Made by a program: the position numbers and the translations under genes. Positions 3,099 through 13,153 of a DNA stretch of 35,017 nt are shown in pieces (within the stretch, counting starts at the first letter, position 1; each line of letters opens with the position of its first letter). The DNA is from a virus (Duplodnaviria > Heunggongvirae > Uroviricota > Caudoviricetes), in the IMG/VR virus record IMGVR_UViG_2623620502_000007; one strand, given 5' to 3'. The notes under the pieces were generated by a model, which was not told the origin of the DNA, did no database searches, and worked only from the letters and a program-made list of their open reading frames with translations.

Positions 3099-3577
3099 TA
3101 TCTCGCCCCCGTCATCCCCGTGAATCTGGTCGCCATACTGCCAGCCTTACCGATGAGCGATTCCGCCTGTTTACCGATATCGCCATAAAGCGCGGCCAGT
3201 GATTCATCAACGCGGGTGAGCGACAGCGTAAAATCAATTTTCCGGGGTGTGCCGTCTGCAAAGAAAATACTCCCTGTTTCACTCACCCTGCTGATGACAT
3301 ACATGCCGTAAATCATGCCGGTGCCATCCAGCAACGGCCACGCCCGGCCTTCCTCTGCCATCAGCCTGAGCGTGGTCATCGTCAGCTTCCCGCCGGTCAG
3401 TTCGGGATAAAGCACGCCGGCAAGCGTCATGTTTTCCTCACCCACACCGAGAAACTGAAAGGCATCCCGTTTACCGATACGGGAATTTGACGGCCAGCGA
3501 TAATCTGATTCGCGCTGCATGGTCTGGTGTGGCAGCGTCTGGCGCATAAAAACAAACATACCTAACGCGAGCATCAT
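3098..3577 (-). CDS. U: Tail protein gpU (159 aa)
   Basis: Synteny and length match P2 U; stop overlaps the D start. Confidence 0.85.
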   Translation of the reverse strand: MMLALGMFVFMRQTLPHQTMQRESDYRWPSNSRIGKRDAFQFLGVGEENMTLAGVLYPELTGGKLTMTTLRLMAEEGRAWPLLDGTGMIYGMYVISRVSETGSIFFADGTPRKIDFTLSLTRVDESLAALYGDIGKQAESLIGKAGSMATRFTGMTGAR

Positions 3578-3591
3578 TTTTCGTCACCTCC

Positions 3592-6039
3592 TTAACCGTC
3601 ATGCATCATGCTGGCACGGGCGCGCGCACGTTTATCCCGCTCGTATTTTTCGAGCGCATCCTGTAACTGGCGGTCGAGCTGAGTCCCCGGCGCAGTACCG
3701 CCCGTCAGACTGATGTGATATTCGTTTTTACTCTGGTCCACATAAGAGCGGCCAGCCGGTGCCGTAACCGGCTGATAAGCCTGATAGCCTGCATAAGAGC
3801 TGGTCGCCGGAATATAACCACCGGTGCCATACGTGGCGGCATGAGTTCTGGCGGCAGTCTGGTCAAGTGCGTCAGACTCTTTGTTGATAACACCGAGTTT
3901 TTCCAGTACCCAGTCAATACCACTGCGCAGTTTGTTGAACGCACTAAGCGGCAGCATCAACGCGTCAGCCAGTGCCTGCCCGAACATGACGCCCGTGTCA
4001 CGGCAACGATTCAGGGTGTCCTGGGTGGCTTTGACCGGAGCAATCAGGTTTTTAAACCACTGCCACGCGGCCTGTAACTTTTCACCCAGCCAGTCAAACA
4101 CCGGTTTAAGTGGCGTGAACAGTTCCCCCACCGGCGCAAATGCCGCTTTCAGCCCTTCCACCACACCGCCAAAGAATGCGCTGACAGGCTCCCAGTATTT
4201 ACGGATAAGCAACGCCCCGGCGACAATGGCGGCCACCACGGCCACAACCGGCCAGCTAATCGCCCCGATGGCCGTCATAACAGCACTGCCAACCGTCGTG
4301 AAGATTGCCCCCATTGCGCCTGCTGCCGCGATGATGGCATTGATGCCGGTGATAACCGGCCAGGCTACAAGACCAATGGCACCGATGATGCCAGTAAGTG
4401 CCAGCGCGCCACCGGCAATGAGGCCAATGGTTGACGCCAGTGATTTGTTTTTCTGGATCCAGCCGTCGAGTTTTAACACATACTTTGTGGCCGTCTGCGT
4501 GAGCTTACGCAGTGCGCCTTCCTGCTGGTCAAACAGGTCAGTCCCCACCGCCTCATAAGCGGACTGAAACTCCTTAAAGTCACCGCCGAGGTTGTCCTGC
4601 ATGATATTTACCAGCTCTGCGGTCTTCCCGTCTGAGGCTTTAAACGCAGCGGTCAGTTTGTCCAGCTTTCCGGTTGAGGCGGCAGTCATCAGCACAGCGG
4701 CGGCTGAGCTGGCCTCCTCCCCGAAAATGGTTTTCATGTATTCAGCCTGCTGGGCAGTACCGAGCCGGTTTTTCTCAAAACTGGCCTGCATTTCTTTCAG
4801 AATGGTAAATACTGGTCGGGTGTTTCCCTTGCTGTCTGAGGTTTTCACACCAAGCTCTTTCAGTGCATCCCATGCTTTTCCCGTCGGTGCCTGCAGGCGG
4901 CTTAACACGGCACGGCTTCCCGTCCCCGCCATTGAACCGGTAATTTTTGCGTCATGCAGCGCCCCGACCATTGCGGCGGTTTCTTCAATGCTGACACCGG
5001 CATTTTTTGCCACTGGTGCGGCATAGGTCAGCGCATCGCTCATACCGTCAAAATCGGCGGCGGTTTTGTTCATCGTCATGGAGAGAACATCCCCGATATG
5101 AGCGACCTTATCGTTTGAAAGCTGAAAGGCGGATTTCATCCCCATCAGCAGGGCGGCGTTTTCTTCCATCGTGCGGCGGTTCGCCAGCGCCATATTCAGC
5201 GTGACCGGCGTTGCCGCCTGAATGGCATCAACATCCCCACCGGCTTTCGCAATGATAATCTGCGCACCGGCAGCATCATCCGCCGAGGCGGCAGTATTGT
5301 CGCCGAGCTGGCGCGCCTGTTTGCGGAGCGCGGCCATTTCGGCGGAATCTTTTGCCACACCGAGCACAGCCTGCAATTCTGAGTTTTTCTGCGCAAACTC
5401 ATAACCGGGCATCAGCAGCTTAACTCCGGCCATCGTTCCCGCCGCCGCAATCCCCACACCGGCAGCGCCCACTGAGGCCATATTTCCGGCAAGTTCTTTT
5501 CCTGCCTGATAACGCTGTTTGACTGCGTTAAGTTTTGCCTGTTGTGCACTGACACGCGCCAGCGCGTCACGCTGCCGGTTAAGCTGTGCGGTGGTTTCAC
5601 TGATACGGTTTTTCAGCCCCTGCTCATCATGTGCAAGATTGCGGGTATTAATTCCCACAGCGGCCAGTTCCCGCTGCTGGCGTTTAACGGAATCCGTCAG
5701 GCGGTTATATTTCGCCTGTAAGTCCTCCGCCGCACGCTTTGCGGATTCCAGCACTTTCGCCTGAGCACGGGTCGGACGTTCAGTGTTTTTAAACTGTGTG
5801 GCAAGTGCTTCGGCCTCCTGCCGTGCCTTTTCAAGTGCATGACCAGTCACGGCGAGCTGTGCACTGGTCTTGCGAAACCCCTCAATACGGGATGCCTGAC
5901 CGTTCAGCTCGCGCAGTGATTTTTGTGTTTCCCGGATATCCCCCGACAGCGACTTACTCGCTGTGCGGATGGATTTAAACGGGCGGGATGCCTGGTCAAC
6001 AGCCCTGAGCAATACCTGTAATTTTACATTGTTACTCAT
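3592..6039 (-). CDS. T: Tail tape measure protein gpT (815 aa)
   Basis: Long Ala/Gly-rich coiled-coil N-terminal region and hydrophobic Gly/Ala-rich central segment typical of tape measure proteins; length equals P2 T; lies directly downstream of E/E'. Confidence 0.9.
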   Translation of the reverse strand: MSNNVKLQVLLRAVDQASRPFKSIRTASKSLSGDIRETQKSLRELNGQASRIEGFRKTSAQLAVTGHALEKARQEAEALATQFKNTERPTRAQAKVLESAKRAAEDLQAKYNRLTDSVKRQQRELAAVGINTRNLAHDEQGLKNRISETTAQLNRQRDALARVSAQQAKLNAVKQRYQAGKELAGNMASVGAAGVGIAAAGTMAGVKLLMPGYEFAQKNSELQAVLGVAKDSAEMAALRKQARQLGDNTAASADDAAGAQIIIAKAGGDVDAIQAATPVTLNMALANRRTMEENAALLMGMKSAFQLSNDKVAHIGDVLSMTMNKTAADFDGMSDALTYAAPVAKNAGVSIEETAAMVGALHDAKITGSMAGTGSRAVLSRLQAPTGKAWDALKELGVKTSDSKGNTRPVFTILKEMQASFEKNRLGTAQQAEYMKTIFGEEASSAAAVLMTAASTGKLDKLTAAFKASDGKTAELVNIMQDNLGGDFKEFQSAYEAVGTDLFDQQEGALRKLTQTATKYVLKLDGWIQKNKSLASTIGLIAGGALALTGIIGAIGLVAWPVITGINAIIAAAGAMGAIFTTVGSAVMTAIGAISWPVVAVVAAIVAGALLIRKYWEPVSAFFGGVVEGLKAAFAPVGELFTPLKPVFDWLGEKLQAAWQWFKNLIAPVKATQDTLNRCRDTGVMFGQALADALMLPLSAFNKLRSGIDWVLEKLGVINKESDALDQTAARTHAATYGTGGYIPATSSYAGYQAYQPVTAPAGRSYVDQSKNEYHISLTGGTAPGTQLDRQLQDALEKYERDKRARARASMMHDG

Positions 6040-6515: not shown

Positions 6516-7034
6516 TCACAGGCCGATATTGCGGCGGTGTTGCTCCAGCCGGTCGACGCCGTTCACCTTCTCAATCATGTTGATGGTGTCGATTTCGACC
6601 AGCTCCTTACCGTCCATCGTCAGCCGGAAATAGGTGCAGACCACGGAGATTTTCGACTCGGTGTCTTCTCCCTGTTTACCCTCGCCGGTGTCGATTTCTT
6701 TCTGACGTCCACGCATGACCACCTCGACGGCCACCGTTTCGCCGGTATCGTCACGCTGGTAAGAGCCTGCAAAACGAATCGGCACAGCATCCACACCGGT
6801 TGCGGCGTAAAGCTCCCAGATAACCGAATCCGGGAAGCCCCCGAGCGACCACTCCATTGACAGCGCATCGTCATCAAGGCCGAGGTCTACCGGTGCGCTG
6901 CCGTTCATTCCCGCACCGCGATAGTTTTCGAGCTTACGGGTCAGTTTTGGCAGCGTGACGGACTTTGCAACGCCCTGATAGCTGTAGCCGTTCAGAAAGA
7001 CGTTCATTAACTTGAGTTTGCGCGGCATTGCCAT
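6516..7034 (-). CDS. FII: Tail tube protein gpFII (172 aa)
   Basis: Synteny (between FI and E) and length match P2 FII. Confidence 0.88.
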   Translation of the reverse strand: MAMPRKLKLMNVFLNGYSYQGVAKSVTLPKLTRKLENYRGAGMNGSAPVDLGLDDDALSMEWSLGGFPDSVIWELYAATGVDAVPIRFAGSYQRDDTGETVAVEVVMRGRQKEIDTGEGKQGEDTESKISVVCTYFRLTMDGKELVEIDTINMIEKVNGVDRLEQHRRNIGL

Positions 7035-7046
7035 CGGTCAGGCTCC

Positions 7047-8237
7047 TTAATTGCTGTTAACCGAGGTGACCAGATTTGCCAGGTATTTATCGGTAATACG
7101 CTGGCGCAGGGTCAGGTTTTCGAGAGGAGGCACCGGTGTATAGTCGTAGTCGATATACAGTTTTCCGGCCTTGAGGGTTTCCGCATCGTTGGATTCTTCG
7201 CTGAACCAGCAGGTCGCATCCACGATATAGCCGTTTGTTTTCAGCTCTCGGAATTTGGCATTGATGCCATCAACGATGTCGCGAATCAGCGTTGCGGTGA
7301 TGGGCTTGTCCACCGCCCACATGTGCGCCTCAGCCATCGTGTCGGCCAGCACCTGCGCGGTGCGGGTGTAGTTTTCAAAGAGGAACAGCGGGTCATCAGA
7401 GCAGGTACGGTTACCCCAGAAGCGGAAACCGTCACGGCGAATCAGCGTTGTGACGCCTGACTCATTCAGCAGGTCAGCATCGGTGCCGGACTCCTGCAAA
7501 TCCCAGAATACAGATGCGCTGATGCCGGTAACACCGTTCACCCCAACGTTGGACAGTGTTTTATGCCAGCCCTGCTCCTGGTCGATTTTAGCGCGCAGAC
7601 CCAGCGCACGGGCGGTGGCATACGCGGTGGCGGTGGTACTGGTGACCGTATCCCATGCGAGGAAATCCGGCCAGATGACCATCAGCTCACGCTGGCTGAA
7701 ATTCTGGCGGTAGGCTTTCACCTCGGAAATGGTCTTACAGCCCCATGCGCTGATATATCCGAAAGCGCGCAGCTTCTGACAGACGGATGCCAGTGCAACA
7801 GCCACCTCTTTGGTGTCCAGTCCCGGCACACCGAGAATACGCGGTTTAACACCGGTTACCGACTCTGCCGCCAGCAGGGCTTTCAGTCCGGTGTACTGAC
7901 CGTTTTCGTCGGTGGTGCCGATGATATTGGAAACGGTCTGCGCAAGTTTCGTTTCTTCGTCGTCGCCGGTGCCGTCCTCCACGCGCACAACAACGGTAAC
8001 CGGTTTTGACTGGTCGGCGATGGCCTGCAACGATGCCGCCAGCGTGCCTTTTTTACCGGCCTTTGCAATTGCGCTCTGCACATTGGTAATCAGCACCGGT
8101 TTATTGATGGGGAAGGTTTCCGCATCCGCATCGCTGGCCGTGCAGACCATGCCGACAATGGCTGTGGATACGGTGGAAATGACGCGGGTGCCGTCGTTAA
8201 TCTCCAGCACCTGCACGCCGTGATGATAGTCACTCAT
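7047..8237 (-). CDS. FI: Contractile tail sheath protein gpFI (396 aa)
   Basis: Length identical to P2 FI; N-terminus MSDYHHGVQVLEINDGTRVISTVSTAIVGMV; first gene of the FI-FII-E-T-U-D operon. Confidence 0.9.
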   Translation of the reverse strand: MSDYHHGVQVLEINDGTRVISTVSTAIVGMVCTASDADAETFPINKPVLITNVQSAIAKAGKKGTLAASLQAIADQSKPVTVVVRVEDGTGDDEETKLAQTVSNIIGTTDENGQYTGLKALLAAESVTGVKPRILGVPGLDTKEVAVALASVCQKLRAFGYISAWGCKTISEVKAYRQNFSQRELMVIWPDFLAWDTVTSTTATAYATARALGLRAKIDQEQGWHKTLSNVGVNGVTGISASVFWDLQESGTDADLLNESGVTTLIRRDGFRFWGNRTCSDDPLFLFENYTRTAQVLADTMAEAHMWAVDKPITATLIRDIVDGINAKFRELKTNGYIVDATCWFSEESNDAETLKAGKLYIDYDYTPVPPLENLTLRQRITDKYLANLVTSVNSN

Positions 8238-8360: not shown

Positions 8361-8592
8361 TGTCCTGATTTGTACACACTCATTTTCCGACTGACAATTT
8401 ACATAGCCAAAATGCTATCAAATCTGACAGCCTGTTTTGAGCGAAGAGGAACCTGAGATTGTGGTATGCTAATTTATGGGGAGCAGGTCAATTGTATTAG
8501 TTATCTTTTTGCCTTTCTTTATCCCATTTCTTTACAGTGGTCTGATACCACTCTTCACGTGTTCGTTATTCCTCTGCTCTGTCACTTGAATT

Positions 8593-9189
8593 TTAGTTGT
8601 CTGTTTTAATTTTTTTGCTTCCCTGGGAAATCGGCCTCCAGTCTTCTCTAATATTTTTCATCTGCTCAGCTATCTGTGTCATTGGACTCCTTGCACCTAA
8701 GTAGCTAACCCCCTCGAAAGAAGCCATATCATAAGAATACTCATTCCGCTCTCTTTCAGTTGAGCCCGGCTGTTTAGACCAGCTAATACTAACAGAATAA
8801 ACTTGATCTTTAATCTGGTCATACTTACAAAGACTGCTGTTGAGGGAATGGCCGTTTTTCAATACGCTAACCTTGCTAAATGGTATACCTTTATTTTTTC
8901 TATGTTCTGCATTAACCAGTGGGGGATTAAATCCGACTTCAATATCATAGGCTGGGGCATTTCCGGTATTAGCAATATTGATATCAAAATAAAAAGCAGC
9001 CCAAGAATTTGGTTCAAGAGTCACAACGACATGAGGTTGAACTGATGCGTCAACCATCCTTTTTGTCTCGTCTGCTAATAGCCTTGTTACTCTCCACAAG
9101 AAAAATGTAGCAACTGCTGTTAGCAATGCTGCCAAAGCGGAGATAAGTGTACTTACTGTGTTTATATGCTCTGCGATAAATTCGATCAT
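8593..9189 (-). CDS. Hypothetical membrane-anchored protein (198 aa), cargo in the FI/G slot
   Basis: AT-rich ORF with a Shine-Dalgarno-like AAGGA upstream; predicted single N-terminal transmembrane helix (VSTLISALAALLTAVATFFLW) followed by a roughly 165-aa soluble domain; no family recognised by eye. Confidence 0.6.
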   Translation of the reverse strand: MIEFIAEHINTVSTLISALAALLTAVATFFLWRVTRLLADETKRMVDASVQPHVVVTLEPNSWAAFYFDINIANTGNAPAYDIEVGFNPPLVNAEHRKNKGIPFSKVSVLKNGHSLNSSLCKYDQIKDQVYSVSISWSKQPGSTERERNEYSYDMASFEGVSYLGARSPMTQIAEQMKNIREDWRPISQGSKKIKTDN

Positions 9190-9641
9190 GAGTTGTCCTT
9201 GGGGGCGTACTAATTGTTTTCAATACTAAAATAGCGCCGGGCTTGAAAAATTGCACACTTATGGTTCGATTTACCTCAACAGTTAAGGCTTCAACTTCCC
9301 CCATGCACCTCACCCAGCCCAAGACTGTATGAGGTCTGACAAAGAACTTCCTGACACTTGAAAACGAGGCAACGGCTAGGGTTTCTCGTAGGGCAAGGAT
9401 TGAATACGAAGCCTGTATATTGCTCCGCGAACGCTGCTGAGGGCAGTTTAAATGTTGGGCGTTTATGTAGCCTTTCACTCACCAGCATGAGTTCAATGTC
9501 TGTGAGTTACCGACAACAATATAAAGGGGGTGGCATCATCATATATCCAAGCTAGAGTCAAATCCTCTAACTGGTTTTATGATCAGTGTCAATTGTTTGA
9601 TTATTGAACGTTTACGAAGCAGCACGGGAGCCATATAACTA

Positions 9642-9860
9642 ATGGGCAGGTATAAGCCTGTATCACGAGGAATCAGTAAAATGGCTGATGATAAGACCAA
9701 AATCGGTACCCCTGACAATGATTTAATAAGTATCAAACAGGATTACGAGAGACGTGATTGGGCTGAAAAGTTTGGAGTTAGCGAGACCAAACTTGTTCAA
9801 GCCGTACAGGCTGTAGGTCATTCGGCTAAGAAAGTACAGGCATGGCTTAAAGACCATTAA
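9642..9860 (+). CDS. Small hypothetical protein (72 aa; 59 aa if started at the internal ATG 9681), possibly DUF3606-like
   Basis: ORF in the AT-rich cargo region; the internal ATG at 9681 has the better RBS (GAGG about 10 nt upstream); the motif DYERRDWAEKFGVSETKLVQAVQAVG resembles DUF3606-type small proteins from memory. Confidence 0.5.
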   Translation: MGRYKPVSRGISKMADDKTKIGTPDNDLISIKQDYERRDWAEKFGVSETKLVQAVQAVGHSAKKVQAWLKDH

Positions 9861-9912
9861 TATATGAGCGCCTTTCTAGGCGCTTTTTTCTTTGTCCTTT
9901 GGGGGATGATTT

Positions 9913-10191
9913 ATGGCTAATAATTTATTTATTACTTACGACCTCATTAAAACGAAAGATTATGCGGCTGTGTATGATGCAATTAAATCTTTAGGAAATT
10001 GGGCTTTAACAACTGAATCGAACTGGTATGTTAACTGTAGTTACTCTGCCGAGGATGCAGCCAAAATTGTGAGGGCGATCATGGATAGTGATGATAAGCT
10101 TATTGTTGTAGACGCAACCAATAACTCAGCTTATTGGTACAATCTCTCAGATGAAGTTAGTAACCAAATTCTGACTGAGTGGAACAAGTAA
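9913..10191 (+). CDS. Small hypothetical protein (92 aa), cargo in the FI/G slot
   Basis: Strong RBS (GGGGGA 7-9 nt upstream of ATG), AT-rich codon usage, followed by a hairpin terminator; no family recognised. Confidence 0.6.
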   Translation: MANNLFITYDLIKTKDYAAVYDAIKSLGNWALTTESNWYVNCSYSAEDAAKIVRAIMDSDDKLIVVDATNNSAYWYNLSDEVSNQILTEWNK

Positions 10192-10196
10192 TTAAA

Positions 10197-10220
10197 GGGG
10201 GTGGGTAGCCCCCTTTAATT
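10197..10220 (+). terminator. Weak rho-independent terminator after the 92-aa ORF
   Basis: ggggg-tgggtag-ccccc stem-loop followed by tttaatt. Confidence 0.5.
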
Positions 10221-10411
10221 CAGAAACCATCATGATTGAAACATTAAATATACTGGGTTAATTCTTTCATCCTTGCTCCCTTGCTATATGTCCTGAAAGC
10301 GTCCTTTTTAGCCTTCTGCTCAGTATGTCCGGTAATGGCACAGAGCGGACTGCCAGATTAGGCTTTACTCTGTGCCATAGATATGTAATCTCACACCAGA
10401 GCTTATACAAC

Positions 10412-10939
10412 TTATTGCGGCATTTCCGGCCATTCAGGATTTGCAGGATCCACACGACTGACCAGAACGCTGTAGCGTTCCCAAGCCTCCAGCCGTGTGC
10501 GCTCCTCCTCTGTTGCCATGTTCAGCCTGACAGCGCGCTCCAGCGGCAAAATCACGGATTCAGCATCTGCAAGAAGTCTGGCTTTCCGATTTTCTGCCTG
10601 CTGCTGCAATTCCTCTGCCGTATAAATGCGTTTAATCACTTTGCCGTCCTTAAACATCCAGTTCCCTGAAATGTCCGCCCGTCGGTTAGCAGTAATATCC
10701 GCCACTTCAACCACACTTAATCCATCCGGTCTGATAGCTGTCACATCCTTTTCCACATAGCGGATGATATTATCTTTGTCGTACGCTATTTTTATCGTGT
10801 CATCAGCAAAATACTTTTGTTCTTCGTACCAGTTCTTACCATCTTCTGTAAAAAACCAGACGACATCAAAGTTCTTTGTCAATTGATATTGTTCAACCGT
10901 TTTTGGATTACCTGCCGTTATATTTATCAAATGCTGCAT
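10412..10939 (-). CDS. G: Tail fibre assembly chaperone gpG (175 aa)
   Basis: Length equals P2 G; immediately downstream of H with a 3-nt gap. Confidence 0.85.
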
Positions 10940-10942
10940 AAA

Positions 10943-13153
10943 TTATACCTGCGCCACGTTGTACCATGTCCCGTTAATGTATTTCTGAACCGGTCTGTAA
11001 TATACGCCACCAATGTTATCGGCAGAGTTTGAGCCGGTATCCTGAACAATAATGCCGGTATATACACACCCGGACGGTGCCTGATGTGTCCATGTCATGC
11101 CATTGTTCGCAGGTTTGTATGTGGCGGCACCACCAAGTCGGATATCCCGGACATAGCGGGAGTCAAAATTGCTGAAATTTGATGGTATCACCTGCCCGGT
11201 AACCCGTAGTGCATCAGGCTTAAGCGTCATCAGATCTTTTGTTGTGCTGCCAGACCTGATGCGCCATTTAAAATATTCATTGCCATTATCACCAGTTTCA
11301 AACCACATGTATGAGTCAGAATCAGCATCTGAATCATTTTTAAATCCAATTTTCGCCCAGTCAGTGTTTCTTTCCCAAATCAGGAAGGCATCATTGATAA
11401 ATTTTATGCTGCCTGACATGCTTCCGCCTGATAATGCCAGAGCAAGAATATCCGCAGGTGTTGGCTTTCGTGATGTGGTATAAAACTCTGACCAGTCAGC
11501 CTCAAATCCATACCCATCACGTGCCGACCTGTAAAAAATCCCCCTGTTTTTATAATCCACAAGAAACTGCATTGCCGGACAACTTCCCTCACCCGTGTAA
11601 AAATGCAACACCATTTTTGATGCTCCGCCATCCTGTGCACAATAAGCACCACTGTCCCAGTTCCATCCTACCGCTTTATTATTTGCAACCGTATTTCCTG
11701 TTTTCCCTAATGCAAAAGCCGGTTGCTTATTTTTCGTATTGTAGTCGCGTCGCCAGCCCGGCGCATAATCAGCTCCGTGATTGATATACGTGAATTGCGC
11801 ACTGGTGGTACCACCACCGCTTGATGTACTCGGAGTGGTCACACGAATGGTCATTGCTGCTTTAACGCCCATAACCTCAATCACGCAACCTGCAAGATGA
11901 ATAGTCCCACAGTCAGTATCGGTAATAATTTTGTTATTACCATATGACCAGGAACACTTGCACATCCAGTAAGGATGATTAAAGGCTCCCTGAGACTCTA
12001 GCCAGTCAATAAACTGAGCGGTTGTCCAGTTTCCGGCTTCAGTGCTCAAAGCGCCGCTATAAGCACGACAGGCACCGATATTTTTCGTGAAGGTATCCTT
12101 TCCCGGAATATCCGCACCGTTCTGATCTTTCTGAAGACGTTTTTCAGCATTGTCATAGGCAGACCTCACCGCTTTTGGTGTTGCGGCCAGCGTTTCTGAA
12201 TCGCTGTTGGTGGCGCTACTGAGCTGGACAAGCCCTTTTCGCGCCGTGGTGGCATCCTGTGCGGTATATTTCCCGTTAGCGAGGTCATATGCTGCCTTTA
12301 CCGCCTTTGGCGTTGCCGCAAGCGTTTCAGAATCGCTGTTGGTGGCGCTACTGAGCTGAGCAAGCCCTTTTCGCGCTGTGGTGGCGTCCTGTGCAGTGTA
12401 TTTCCCGTTAGCAAGGTCATATGCTGTCTTTACTGCTTTTGGCGTTGCGGCGAGCGTTTCAGACGTGCTGTTAGTCGCACTACTGAGCTGAACAAGGCCT
12501 TTTCGCGCCGTGGTGGCATCCTGCGCAGTATATTTCCCGTTAGCAAGGTCATATGCGGCCTTTACCGCTTTCGGCGTTGCGGCCAGTGTTTCAGACGTGC
12601 TGTTGGTCGCACTGCTTAACTGAGTAAAACCTTTTGCGGTCAGCGAGGCGTCCGGGTGACGTCGTGACTGTTCGTGCTCTGCAATTTTGTCATCAACGTA
12701 ATCCTGCGTCGCCATCACCGTTGTGGTGTCAATGGTCAGCGCCACTGAGGCCACACTGCTGACGATGATGACCATGCGACAGGTCTGCGAACGCCCTGAG
12801 CCTTCGGCAAGAGCTGGCTTATAACTTTCGGCCATGTTCGCCACGGCAATTAATGTTCCCGCATCATCGTACAGGCCAAGCTCACGCATCCAGAAACCGC
12901 CCACCTCCGGCGGAATAACCAGCTCTGCGATAATATAATTACTGTTTCGTTTGTCCTGACTGATTTTGTTCAGCGCATGTCGCCAGACTTCGTGGATAAG
13001 CCCGGTCTGTCCGGCATCCGGGACAGGCAATTTACCACCGCCATCCCCGACGGCCATCGTGGTAATGTTGACCTTCCGCCCTCCCGGTGCGGTTGCCGCT
13101 GCCAGCTTTGCTGCACCGGCAGTGGTGATAACGGTTTTGAATTTTGTGCTCAT
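10943..13153 (-). CDS. H: Tail fibre protein gpH (736 aa) with internal tandem repeats and a divergent C-terminal receptor-binding region
   Basis: N-terminus MSTKFKTVITTAGAAKLAAA is typical of P2-family H; about 3.7 tandem copies of a 44-aa unit; C-terminal half is lower-GC and Cys-containing, unlike the N-terminal part. Confidence 0.88.
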   Translation of the reverse strand: MSTKFKTVITTAGAAKLAAATAPGGRKVNITTMAVGDGGGKLPVPDAGQTGLIHEVWRHALNKISQDKRNSNYIIAELVIPPEVGGFWMRELGLYDDAGTLIAVANMAESYKPALAEGSGRSQTCRMVIIVSSVASVALTIDTTTVMATQDYVDDKIAEHEQSRRHPDASLTAKGFTQLSSATNSTSETLAATPKAVKAAYDLANGKYTAQDATTARKGLVQLSSATNSTSETLAATPKAVKTAYDLANGKYTAQDATTARKGLAQLSSATNSDSETLAATPKAVKAAYDLANGKYTAQDATTARKGLVQLSSATNSDSETLAATPKAVRSAYDNAEKRLQKDQNGADIPGKDTFTKNIGACRAYSGALSTEAGNWTTAQFIDWLESQGAFNHPYWMCKCSWSYGNNKIITDTDCGTIHLAGCVIEVMGVKAAMTIRVTTPSTSSGGGTTSAQFTYINHGADYAPGWRRDYNTKNKQPAFALGKTGNTVANNKAVGWNWDSGAYCAQDGGASKMVLHFYTGEGSCPAMQFLVDYKNRGIFYRSARDGYGFEADWSEFYTTSRKPTPADILALALSGGSMSGSIKFINDAFLIWERNTDWAKIGFKNDSDADSDSYMWFETGDNGNEYFKWRIRSGSTTKDLMTLKPDALRVTGQVIPSNFSNFDSRYVRDIRLGGAATYKPANNGMTWTHQAPSGCVYTGIIVQDTGSNSADNIGGVYYRPVQKYINGTWYNVAQV
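12140..12634 (-). repeat. Intragenic tandem repeat in H: about 3.7 copies of a 132-nt (44-aa) unit
   Basis: Protein repeat KG[FL]xQLSSATNS[TD]SETLAATPKAVKxAYDLANGKYTAQDATTAR at aa 174-217, 218-261, 262-305 and a partial fourth copy; near-identical at nucleotide level. Confidence 0.85.

Follow-up and report, generated by a model that had tools for sequence, protein, structure and literature searches.

A stretch of about 450 nt in which no gene is evident lies amid the cargo genes of a P2-like prophage of E. coli. The question raised by this locus is whether the stretch encodes a structured RNA (such as a regulatory RNA, an antitoxin RNA or another non-coding part of a defence module), as the initial annotation suggested, whether it holds promoters for the divergent genes on either side, or whether it is something else. 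The window, which is the whole stretch of DNA that was analysed (35,017 nt; IMG/VR record IMGVR_UViG_2623620502_000007), is that prophage, and its cargo insert occupies the Z/fun position between FI and G. The reading favoured here, with a probability of about 0.8, is that the gap, a spacer between divergent genes, is a mosaic of recombination debris and contains no dedicated RNA gene.

From FI toward G the insert carries ORF1 on the minus strand and the gap, followed by two plus-strand genes, the DUF3606 gene and one that encodes 92 aa. The distance between ORF1 and the first plus-strand ATG is 452 nt (9190-9641). The genes and hairpins around the gap are as follows.

6516-7034, minus strand: FII, tail tube
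7047-8237, minus strand: FI, sheath
8593-9189, minus strand: ORF1, N-terminally membrane-anchored protein, phrog_11802; left flank of the gap, 'ORF1' of P2-EC53
9681-9860, plus strand: DUF3606 gene, 59 aa; right flank of the gap
9866-9885: terminator hairpin after the DUF3606 gene
9913-10191, plus strand: 92-aa gene, phrog_1090
10190-10220: bidirectional hairpin after the 92-aa gene
10412-10939, minus strand: G, tail-fibre gene
10943-13153, minus strand: H, tail-fibre gene

The N-terminus of ORF1 is a hydrophobic segment, and the P2-EC53 record (AJ512682) names the product "putative lysogenic conversion protein". ORF1 is shortened in the window by a TAT to TAA change at codon 199, and a second stop (CAA to TAA) lies further downstream (window 8593-8597 and its equivalents in L002 and L005; loci used for comparison carry L numbers). 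The last 32 residues are lost relative to the 230-aa forms in R18C, P2-EC53 and the island copy of E2348/69, and RefSeq lists the 198-aa ORF1 as an ordinary CDS. At the other end of the insert, the 92-aa protein has sub-threshold Cas2-like matches (Pfam CRISPR_Cas2, E 0.07; PADLOC Cas2 models, E 0.024-0.025), and its homologues adjoin integrases in the ygeQ-type islands L007 and L158, with or without DUF3606. The hairpin at 10190-10220, between the 92-aa gene and G, has a perfect 12-bp stem (AATTAAAGGGGG...CCCCCTTTAATT) and is probably a bidirectional terminator that insulates the cargo from the late tail-fibre operon.

The absence of a convincing ORF from 9190-9641, reported in the initial annotation, is borne out by ORF, Pfam, PHROGs, PADLOC and annotation checks. 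The ORF scan returned no ORF in the gap that combines a Shine-Dalgarno sequence with at least 20 codons, and none of the six-frame ORFs has a significant match to Pfam, PHROGs or PADLOC. RefSeq and GenBank annotate no gene in the gap, where the P2-EC53 record has only a -10 signal and the RBS of ORF1. The non-coding gap is most likely better bounded as 9190-9680, with the DUF3606 gene starting at ATG 9681 and not at ATG 9642, since RefSeq places the start at ATG 9681, the alignments to the Pfam and PHROG profiles set in at residues 17 and 14, respectively, of the 72-aa ORF from ATG 9642 (just past the methionine of ATG 9681), a GAGGA at 9667-9671 lies 9 nt 5' of ATG 9681, and the 13 codons that a start at ATG 9642 would add are poorly conserved in L158 and missing from L007.

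About 400 of the 452 nt of 9190-9641 (88%) can be traced to other loci, in three segments (9190-9327, 9366-9555 and 9570-9641). The initial annotation overlooked that gene and island debris of traceable origin makes up most of the stretch.

Origins of the segments of the gap

The features recognized within the gap are given below. The promoter, operator and 5' UTR entries are candidates.

9190-9236, minus strand: ORF1-proximal leader with RBS AAGGA, 6 nt before the ATG; 86% identity to leuX island L004
9237-9327: 91-nt module; matches the left end of a leuX island element (~260 nt) at 81-87% identity
9328-9365: junction, 38 nt; no detectable homologue
9366-9414, plus strand: probable 3' remnant of the island gene that precedes the endonuclease gene (WP_001547076-like; E 0.002, weak)
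9415-9417: deletion junction with GTA microhomology; L013, L024 and L100 have 312 nt more here
9415-9555, plus strand: pseudogene remnant, last 46 codons plus TAG, Endonuclease VII family (PF02945); 48% identity
9556-9569: 14-nt junction that joins the endonuclease remnant to the DUF3606 cassette; no source found
9570-9587: operator-like palindrome ACTGGT-N6-ATCAGT; perfect ACTGGT-N6-ACCAGT in L158 and L007
9611-9639, plus strand: candidate sigma-70 promoter, TTTACG 9611-9616, 17-nt spacer, TATAAC 9634-9639
9640-9680, plus strand: probable 5' UTR with GAGGA 9667-9671, preceding the DUF3606 ATG at 9681

By homology, the middle of the gap holds a decayed gene of the Endonuclease VII family, of which 9415-9555 is a C-terminal pseudogene fragment. 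An earlier stage of the decay is preserved in L013, one of three P2-like contigs with adjoining tail-fibre genes (the others being L024 and L100) whose gap is 91-92% identical to that of the window. Their additional 312 nt are the 5' two-thirds of the endonuclease gene and have 84-85% nucleotide identity to a gene of leuX islands. This source gene is annotated as 'endonuclease domain-containing protein' and lies 9.6 kb from the module in those islands. The ORF of the L013 insert has no match in Pfam, PADLOC or PHROGs. The intact island protein (143 aa) matches PF02945 (Endonuclease_7) with 27.4 bits against a cut-off of 23.6, and it also hits genes labelled as endonuclease VII in several hundred records of phages. 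The L013 translation is 64% identical to the island protein over 138 aa and is interrupted by an in-frame stop and an 11-nt deletion. In the window, 9415-9552 (followed by TAG at 9553-9555) reads VYCSANAAEGSLNVGRLCSLSLTSMSSMSVSYRQQYKGGGIIIYPS. It aligns with residues 97-142 of the island protein at 48% identity, and its Smith-Waterman score (91) exceeds all those obtained when the gap was shuffled 1000 times and compared in six frames (median 32, maximum 53).

Residues 1-96 have been removed from the window copy by the 312-nt deletion and by loss further upstream, and the start codon, the RBS and the catalytic DHxH...N region are missing as well. The remnant ranks with the least conserved parts of the cassette (90% identity in L013 and 95% in L118 and L119, compared with 96-99% for the genes). 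Thus, all three features looked for in a pseudogene, namely homology to an intact member, a disrupted or truncated frame and relaxed constraint, were found. The probable remnant of the preceding island gene includes an exact 14-nt match at 9402-9415, and its counterpart in L013 is clear (E 2e-12), with the last ~34 codons retained.

Even the intact form of the endonuclease deserves a comment. In the Endonuclease VII family, two zinc-binding cysteines are normally present in the segment that follows the DHCH-TG-R motif. The segment past this motif in the intact protein of L155 (12035-12466) is AVVHRSANAAEGG, and even this copy may be atypical or inactive if the consensus holds.

The right end of the gap has a different source. 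Homology to two unrelated islands of the ygeQ type, L158 and L007, begins exactly at 9570. The L158 island has the whole pair of DUF3606 and 92-aa genes at 82% identity. The L007 island, which adjoins ygeQ and also carries genes for an integrase and a capsid protein, matches window 9570-9616 at 91.5% upstream of its homologue of the 92-aa gene, which is itself only 70% identical. The palindrome ACTGGT-N6-AYCAGT, the sequence GTCAATTG and the pair TTTACG-N17/18-TATAAC are kept in the window, L158 and L007. The hexamers are the same in L007, and the spacer bases between them differ from those of the window.

The right ~110 nt (9570-9680) are thus likely to be the native promoter/operator and 5' UTR of the plus-strand DUF3606/92-aa pair, with a predicted transcription start near 9646 and a leader of ~35 nt. 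The pair TTTACG-N17-TATAAC scores 7.2 bits against a shuffle median of 11.1 (PWM scan) and fails the T6 rule of the consensus scan. No sigma-70 site in the gap scored above shuffled sequence, in either the consensus scan or the PWM scan and with the candidates of both strands considered, and the promoter assignments therefore rest on context and comparison. The suggestion that the gap contains promoters for the flanking divergent genes, which the gene layout demands, thus gains support from L158 and L007 on the right side; on the left side the candidates score at or below chance.

The left end of the gap leads to a second kind of island. The loci that bear the 91-nt module are integrative islands beside tRNA-Leu (leuX) and ahr. 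In L155, the island begins with variable cargo and a non-coding element. Next come genes for a resolvase-like protein (PF00239 plus HTH_7; WP_001547064) and for a DEAD/DEAH helicase, many small genes and a gene for an HNH endonuclease; two further small genes, the "endonuclease domain" gene, a gene on the minus strand and one for a tyrosine integrase complete the island. The 1.26 kb (3367-4625) that separate the resolvase-like from the helicase gene of L155 are unannotated, and the ORFs found there are of low complexity only.

The non-coding element of these islands is ~260 nt long and is 92-96% identical across E. coli, Enterobacter and Kosakonia. Its left border is razor-sharp (…GGCTTGAAAAATTGCA…), and the genes differ to the left of it and sometimes to the right. 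The element occupies 2326-2590 of L155 and is also present in L004-L006, L009-L011, L045, L066, L074, L090, L093, L097 and L151. It carries a direct repeat, GGCTT(G/C)AA, with its copies 43 nt apart, and a hairpin, CCCAGCC-GAAG-GCTGGG. In L066 and L075 the element abuts a 5'-truncated gene for a P4-type integrase. The element has neither codon periodicity nor covariation, and a search of it against Rfam gave sub-threshold chance matches only.

A gene homologous to ORF1 lies to the left of the element in the L004, L005 and L139 islands. The L004 island is collinear with the window through ORF1 (94% identity), the leader (86%) and the module (86%). In L005, ORF1 is 87% and the module 84% identical, and the leader has no blastn hit. 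Among 5,426 complete E. coli genomes, a sensitive search found the full gap in ~99 and 9237-9327 alone in ~65 others, where these lone copies are 81-86% identical and unannotated. The module appears from these alignments to have been co-transferred with ORF1, and the ORF1 promoter is most likely to lie within the collinear 138 nt (9190-9327), so that the left ~140 nt would probably serve as ORF1 promoter and leader. The best minus-strand sigma-70 candidates for ORF1 (GTGCAA-N17-TATTTT at 9256-9228 and TTAACT-N17-CATAAG at 9286-9258) are at or below chance.

A larger regulatory role for the left end has to be weighed, in which the left 140-330 nt would form a long 5' leader/promoter of ORF1 and the module would be a functional cis-element brought from the island. 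The collinearity of ORF1, leader and module in phage and island copies is consistent with this, as are the long blocks GGGGGAAGTTGAAGCCTTAA and TGCAATTTTTCAAG on the minus strand of the module, which are invariant in 22 copies. Additionally, the depositors of AJ512682 marked a -10 signal at 9518-9523, ~330 nt upstream of ORF1; however, this signal sits in the endonuclease remnant and is 312 nt farther from ORF1 in L013. The absence of any promoter scoring above chance also speaks against such a leader. Islands that lack ORF1, and in which the neighbouring genes converge on the module, still keep the module, which is therefore not specifically an ORF1 element. The module within the phage cassette is no better conserved than third codon positions, and it is about as diverged between window and island (81-87% identity) as the L013 pseudogene remnant is from the island gene (84-85%). 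It is therefore treated as a passenger. A long regulatory leader is thus unlikely, and it is similarly improbable that the module retains a cis-acting role in the phage cassette.

The role of the module in the islands is a separate matter. Among 16-22 module copies there is no codon periodicity and there are no compensatory changes on either strand, and the conservation of the module in islands therefore resembles that of a DNA-level, sequence-specific function. The module could be the functional end of the ~260-nt cis-acting element, as a protein-binding or recombination site that edges the cargo slot and promotes the shuttling of ORF1-type cargo between island and phage, a proposal to which only a small probability is given. 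Several more specific proposals were rejected. A small peptide (e.g., MVRFTSTVKASTSPMHLTQPKTV) would have no Shine-Dalgarno sequence, and the variable sites of 16 island copies are spread evenly over the three codon phases (31/32/33, p=0.97). A minus-strand terminator or ctRNA-like RNA (a 15.9-bit chance match) would have a closing stem that is broken in L006 and L010, and RNAalifold found no covariation for it. An integron-like or res-like crossover site would have no palindrome at the sharp border and a core that departs from the attC consensus, and the resolvase-like gene is missing at several of the loci.

Structured RNA, constraint and the residual open frame

The proposal that the gap encodes a structured non-coding RNA of the cargo module (for example, an sRNA with a regulatory role, the RNA of an antitoxin, or an RNA like those of retrons and defence systems) draws on the presence of a long unannotated stretch amid cargo genes in a defence-type hotspot. 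It is not supported by Rfam searches, folding, covariation or substitution rate. The covariance-model search found no match inside 9190-9641 at the gathering threshold, and with Rfam 15 at E<=10 the gap returned a lone 15.5-bit snoRNA chance match. Elsewhere in the window, the CyaR/RyeE sRNA gene (RF00112, 100.7 bits) is found at 1445-1530, in the left part. The several short inverted repeats pointed out in the initial annotation are at chance level, and the minimum free energy is not below that of dinucleotide shuffles (z -0.9 for the minus strand and 0.0 for the plus strand). The gap contains no tandem repeats, including any of the ToxI kind, and its direct repeats are limited to short chance pairs. 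Neither a reverse transcriptase nor another RNA-partner protein is encoded by the neighbouring genes.

Copies of the cassette were drawn from E. coli genomes, phage records, IMG/VR and metagenomes; 17-mer scans of metagenome and viral data returned mostly chance matches, and ~25 true copies were left after BLAST filtering. Covariation was assessed in 10 distinct copies (the window, P2-EC53, R18C, L013, L022, L030, L118, L119, L156 and L157). With RNAalifold, the pairs that vary among these copies number 37 on the plus strand and 27 on the minus strand; compensatory changes occur in 0 and 1 of them, respectively, and 23 and 12 lose their pairing in one or more copies. One hairpin of the module, CAGCC-CAA-GRCTG (9316-9328), has a C-G to U-A change in L119, which speaks for an RNA, but the covariation term for the module across 22 copies is only -0.42 kcal/mol.

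The substitution rate points in the same direction. Divergence from the window, given for the gap and for third codon positions, is 0.074 and 0.057 in L013, 0.046 and 0.043 in L156, 0.045 and 0.046 in L157, 0.024 and 0.026 in L118, and 0.031 and 0.037 in L119, so that the pace of change in the gap is close to that of third codon positions in the three flanking genes. The first plus second codon positions of these genes diverge by 0.010-0.017. The gap also tolerates length differences of 1, 3 and 312 nt, and 9366-9555 can be traced to protein-gene debris. The cassette copies are young (at least 91% identical), which limits the power of the rate and covariation tests, and the spacer may still contain a binding site or a functional RNA of small size. 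A structured RNA as the purpose of the gap is nevertheless very unlikely.

The 65-codon ORF at 9358-9555 was rightly dismissed as a gene in the initial annotation, which missed that it is the recognizable 3' remnant of one. That the C-terminal part of the endonuclease has been domesticated here as a small protein with a function is most improbable: its 65 codons are open and close at the ancestral stop, but the ORF starts with TTG and has no Shine-Dalgarno sequence, its first 19 residues derive from unrelated DNA that was read in a different ancestral frame, the catalytic motif is missing, the segment is the fastest-evolving of the cassette (90-95% identity), the frame is broken in L013, and a word-index search of the protein collection found no homologue of the fused ORF.

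Assembly of the spacer and spread of the cassette

In the simplest history, the mosaic spacer of recombination debris was assembled in three steps. ORF1 would have arrived with its own leader and with the first 91 nt of the adjoining backbone element of a leuX island. This segment would then have been joined to the 3' end of two genes that lie ~9.6 kb along the same kind of island, of which the second, the Endonuclease VII-family gene, would have decayed first by a stop and an 11-nt deletion (the state seen in L013) and then by the 312-nt deletion seen in the window. Finally, a junction would have been formed to the DUF3606/92-aa cassette of a ygeQ-type island, which would have brought its own upstream control region. 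A transfer from island to phage is the direction we infer, because intact copies of the endonuclease gene occur only in islands and because the ~260-nt element belongs to an island backbone that is found with many cargoes.

The cassette of ORF1, gap, DUF3606 gene and 92-aa gene spans ~2 kb, at about 8438-10395. Outside P2-like phages it is found in L156 and L157 at 95-96% identity, flanked by DUF977 and DUF1627 genes and IS elements. The occurrence of the unit in both settings indicates that it now moves as a block between prophage types, in the P2 FI/G hotspot and in lambdoid-type contexts. Long inverted repeats around the cassette, which are labelled in AJ512682, were looked for between the two flanks in the window, and none was detectable.

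As for function, only the two ends of the gap are likely to matter, as probable control regions of ORF1 on the left and of the plus-strand pair on the right, and the middle (~9328-9569) is likely inert.

Comparison with known systems

The gap is best read as ordinary mosaic intergenic debris with two control regions. Its likeness to ToxI-type RNAs, to retron msr-msd and to DRT ncRNAs is that of an unannotated stretch beside small cargo genes in a hotspot. Unlike the loci of ToxI (type III TA), the gap has neither tandem direct repeats nor a ToxN/AbiQ-like or endoribonuclease neighbour, and unlike retron and DRT loci it is bordered by genes for a membrane protein, a DUF3606 protein and the 92-aa protein, among which Pfam, PADLOC and PHROGs reveal no reverse transcriptase. 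A term search of the paper by Rousset (2022) gave no match for this locus. The value of the result is in part corrective: a tempting stretch in a phage defence hotspot that seems to hide an RNA resolves into leftovers and ordinary control regions. It also yields a candidate promoter/operator for the DUF3606/92-aa pair and draws attention to the conserved leuX island element.

Close relatives are the proviral Z-region of P2-EC53 (AJ512682) and phage R18C, which have the same cassette at the same site between G and FI and a gap that is 98.7% and 99.1% identical, respectively. In the P2-EC53 record a -10 signal and an RBS are all that is marked in the stretch and in R18C nothing is marked; ORF1 is full length (230 aa) in both. 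With respect to the Endonuclease VII family (PF02945), window 9415-9552 aligns with the C-terminal 46 residues of the island member. Only the non-catalytic tail is kept in the window, whereas the DH(C/D)H-TG-R...N core belongs to the deleted 312 nt or to sequence upstream, and the fragment is no working member of the family.

A large survey of P2/P4 hotspots found that most pseudogenes there are very small intergenic fragments, which it interprets as remnants of intense recombination, and that such remnants are usually without recognizable homology to known defence genes (Nucleic Acids Res 2026, PMC13586616). The gap resembles these remnants in that it lies at a variable locus of a P2-like prophage and is what is left of genes that were swapped with other mobile elements and with cryptic islands. 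It differs from them in that its source can be traced piece by piece to two types of island and in that a decay series leads from the island gene through L013 to the window. It also differs from the debris of defence genes, since the remnant here is that of an Endonuclease VII-family gene of the island backbone. The breakpoints thus provide a concrete case, dated by decay, of a P2 hotspot cassette that was built from two kinds of island with no flanking homology, and this case bears on how defence-type cargo moves among unrelated mobile elements (PMC13586616).
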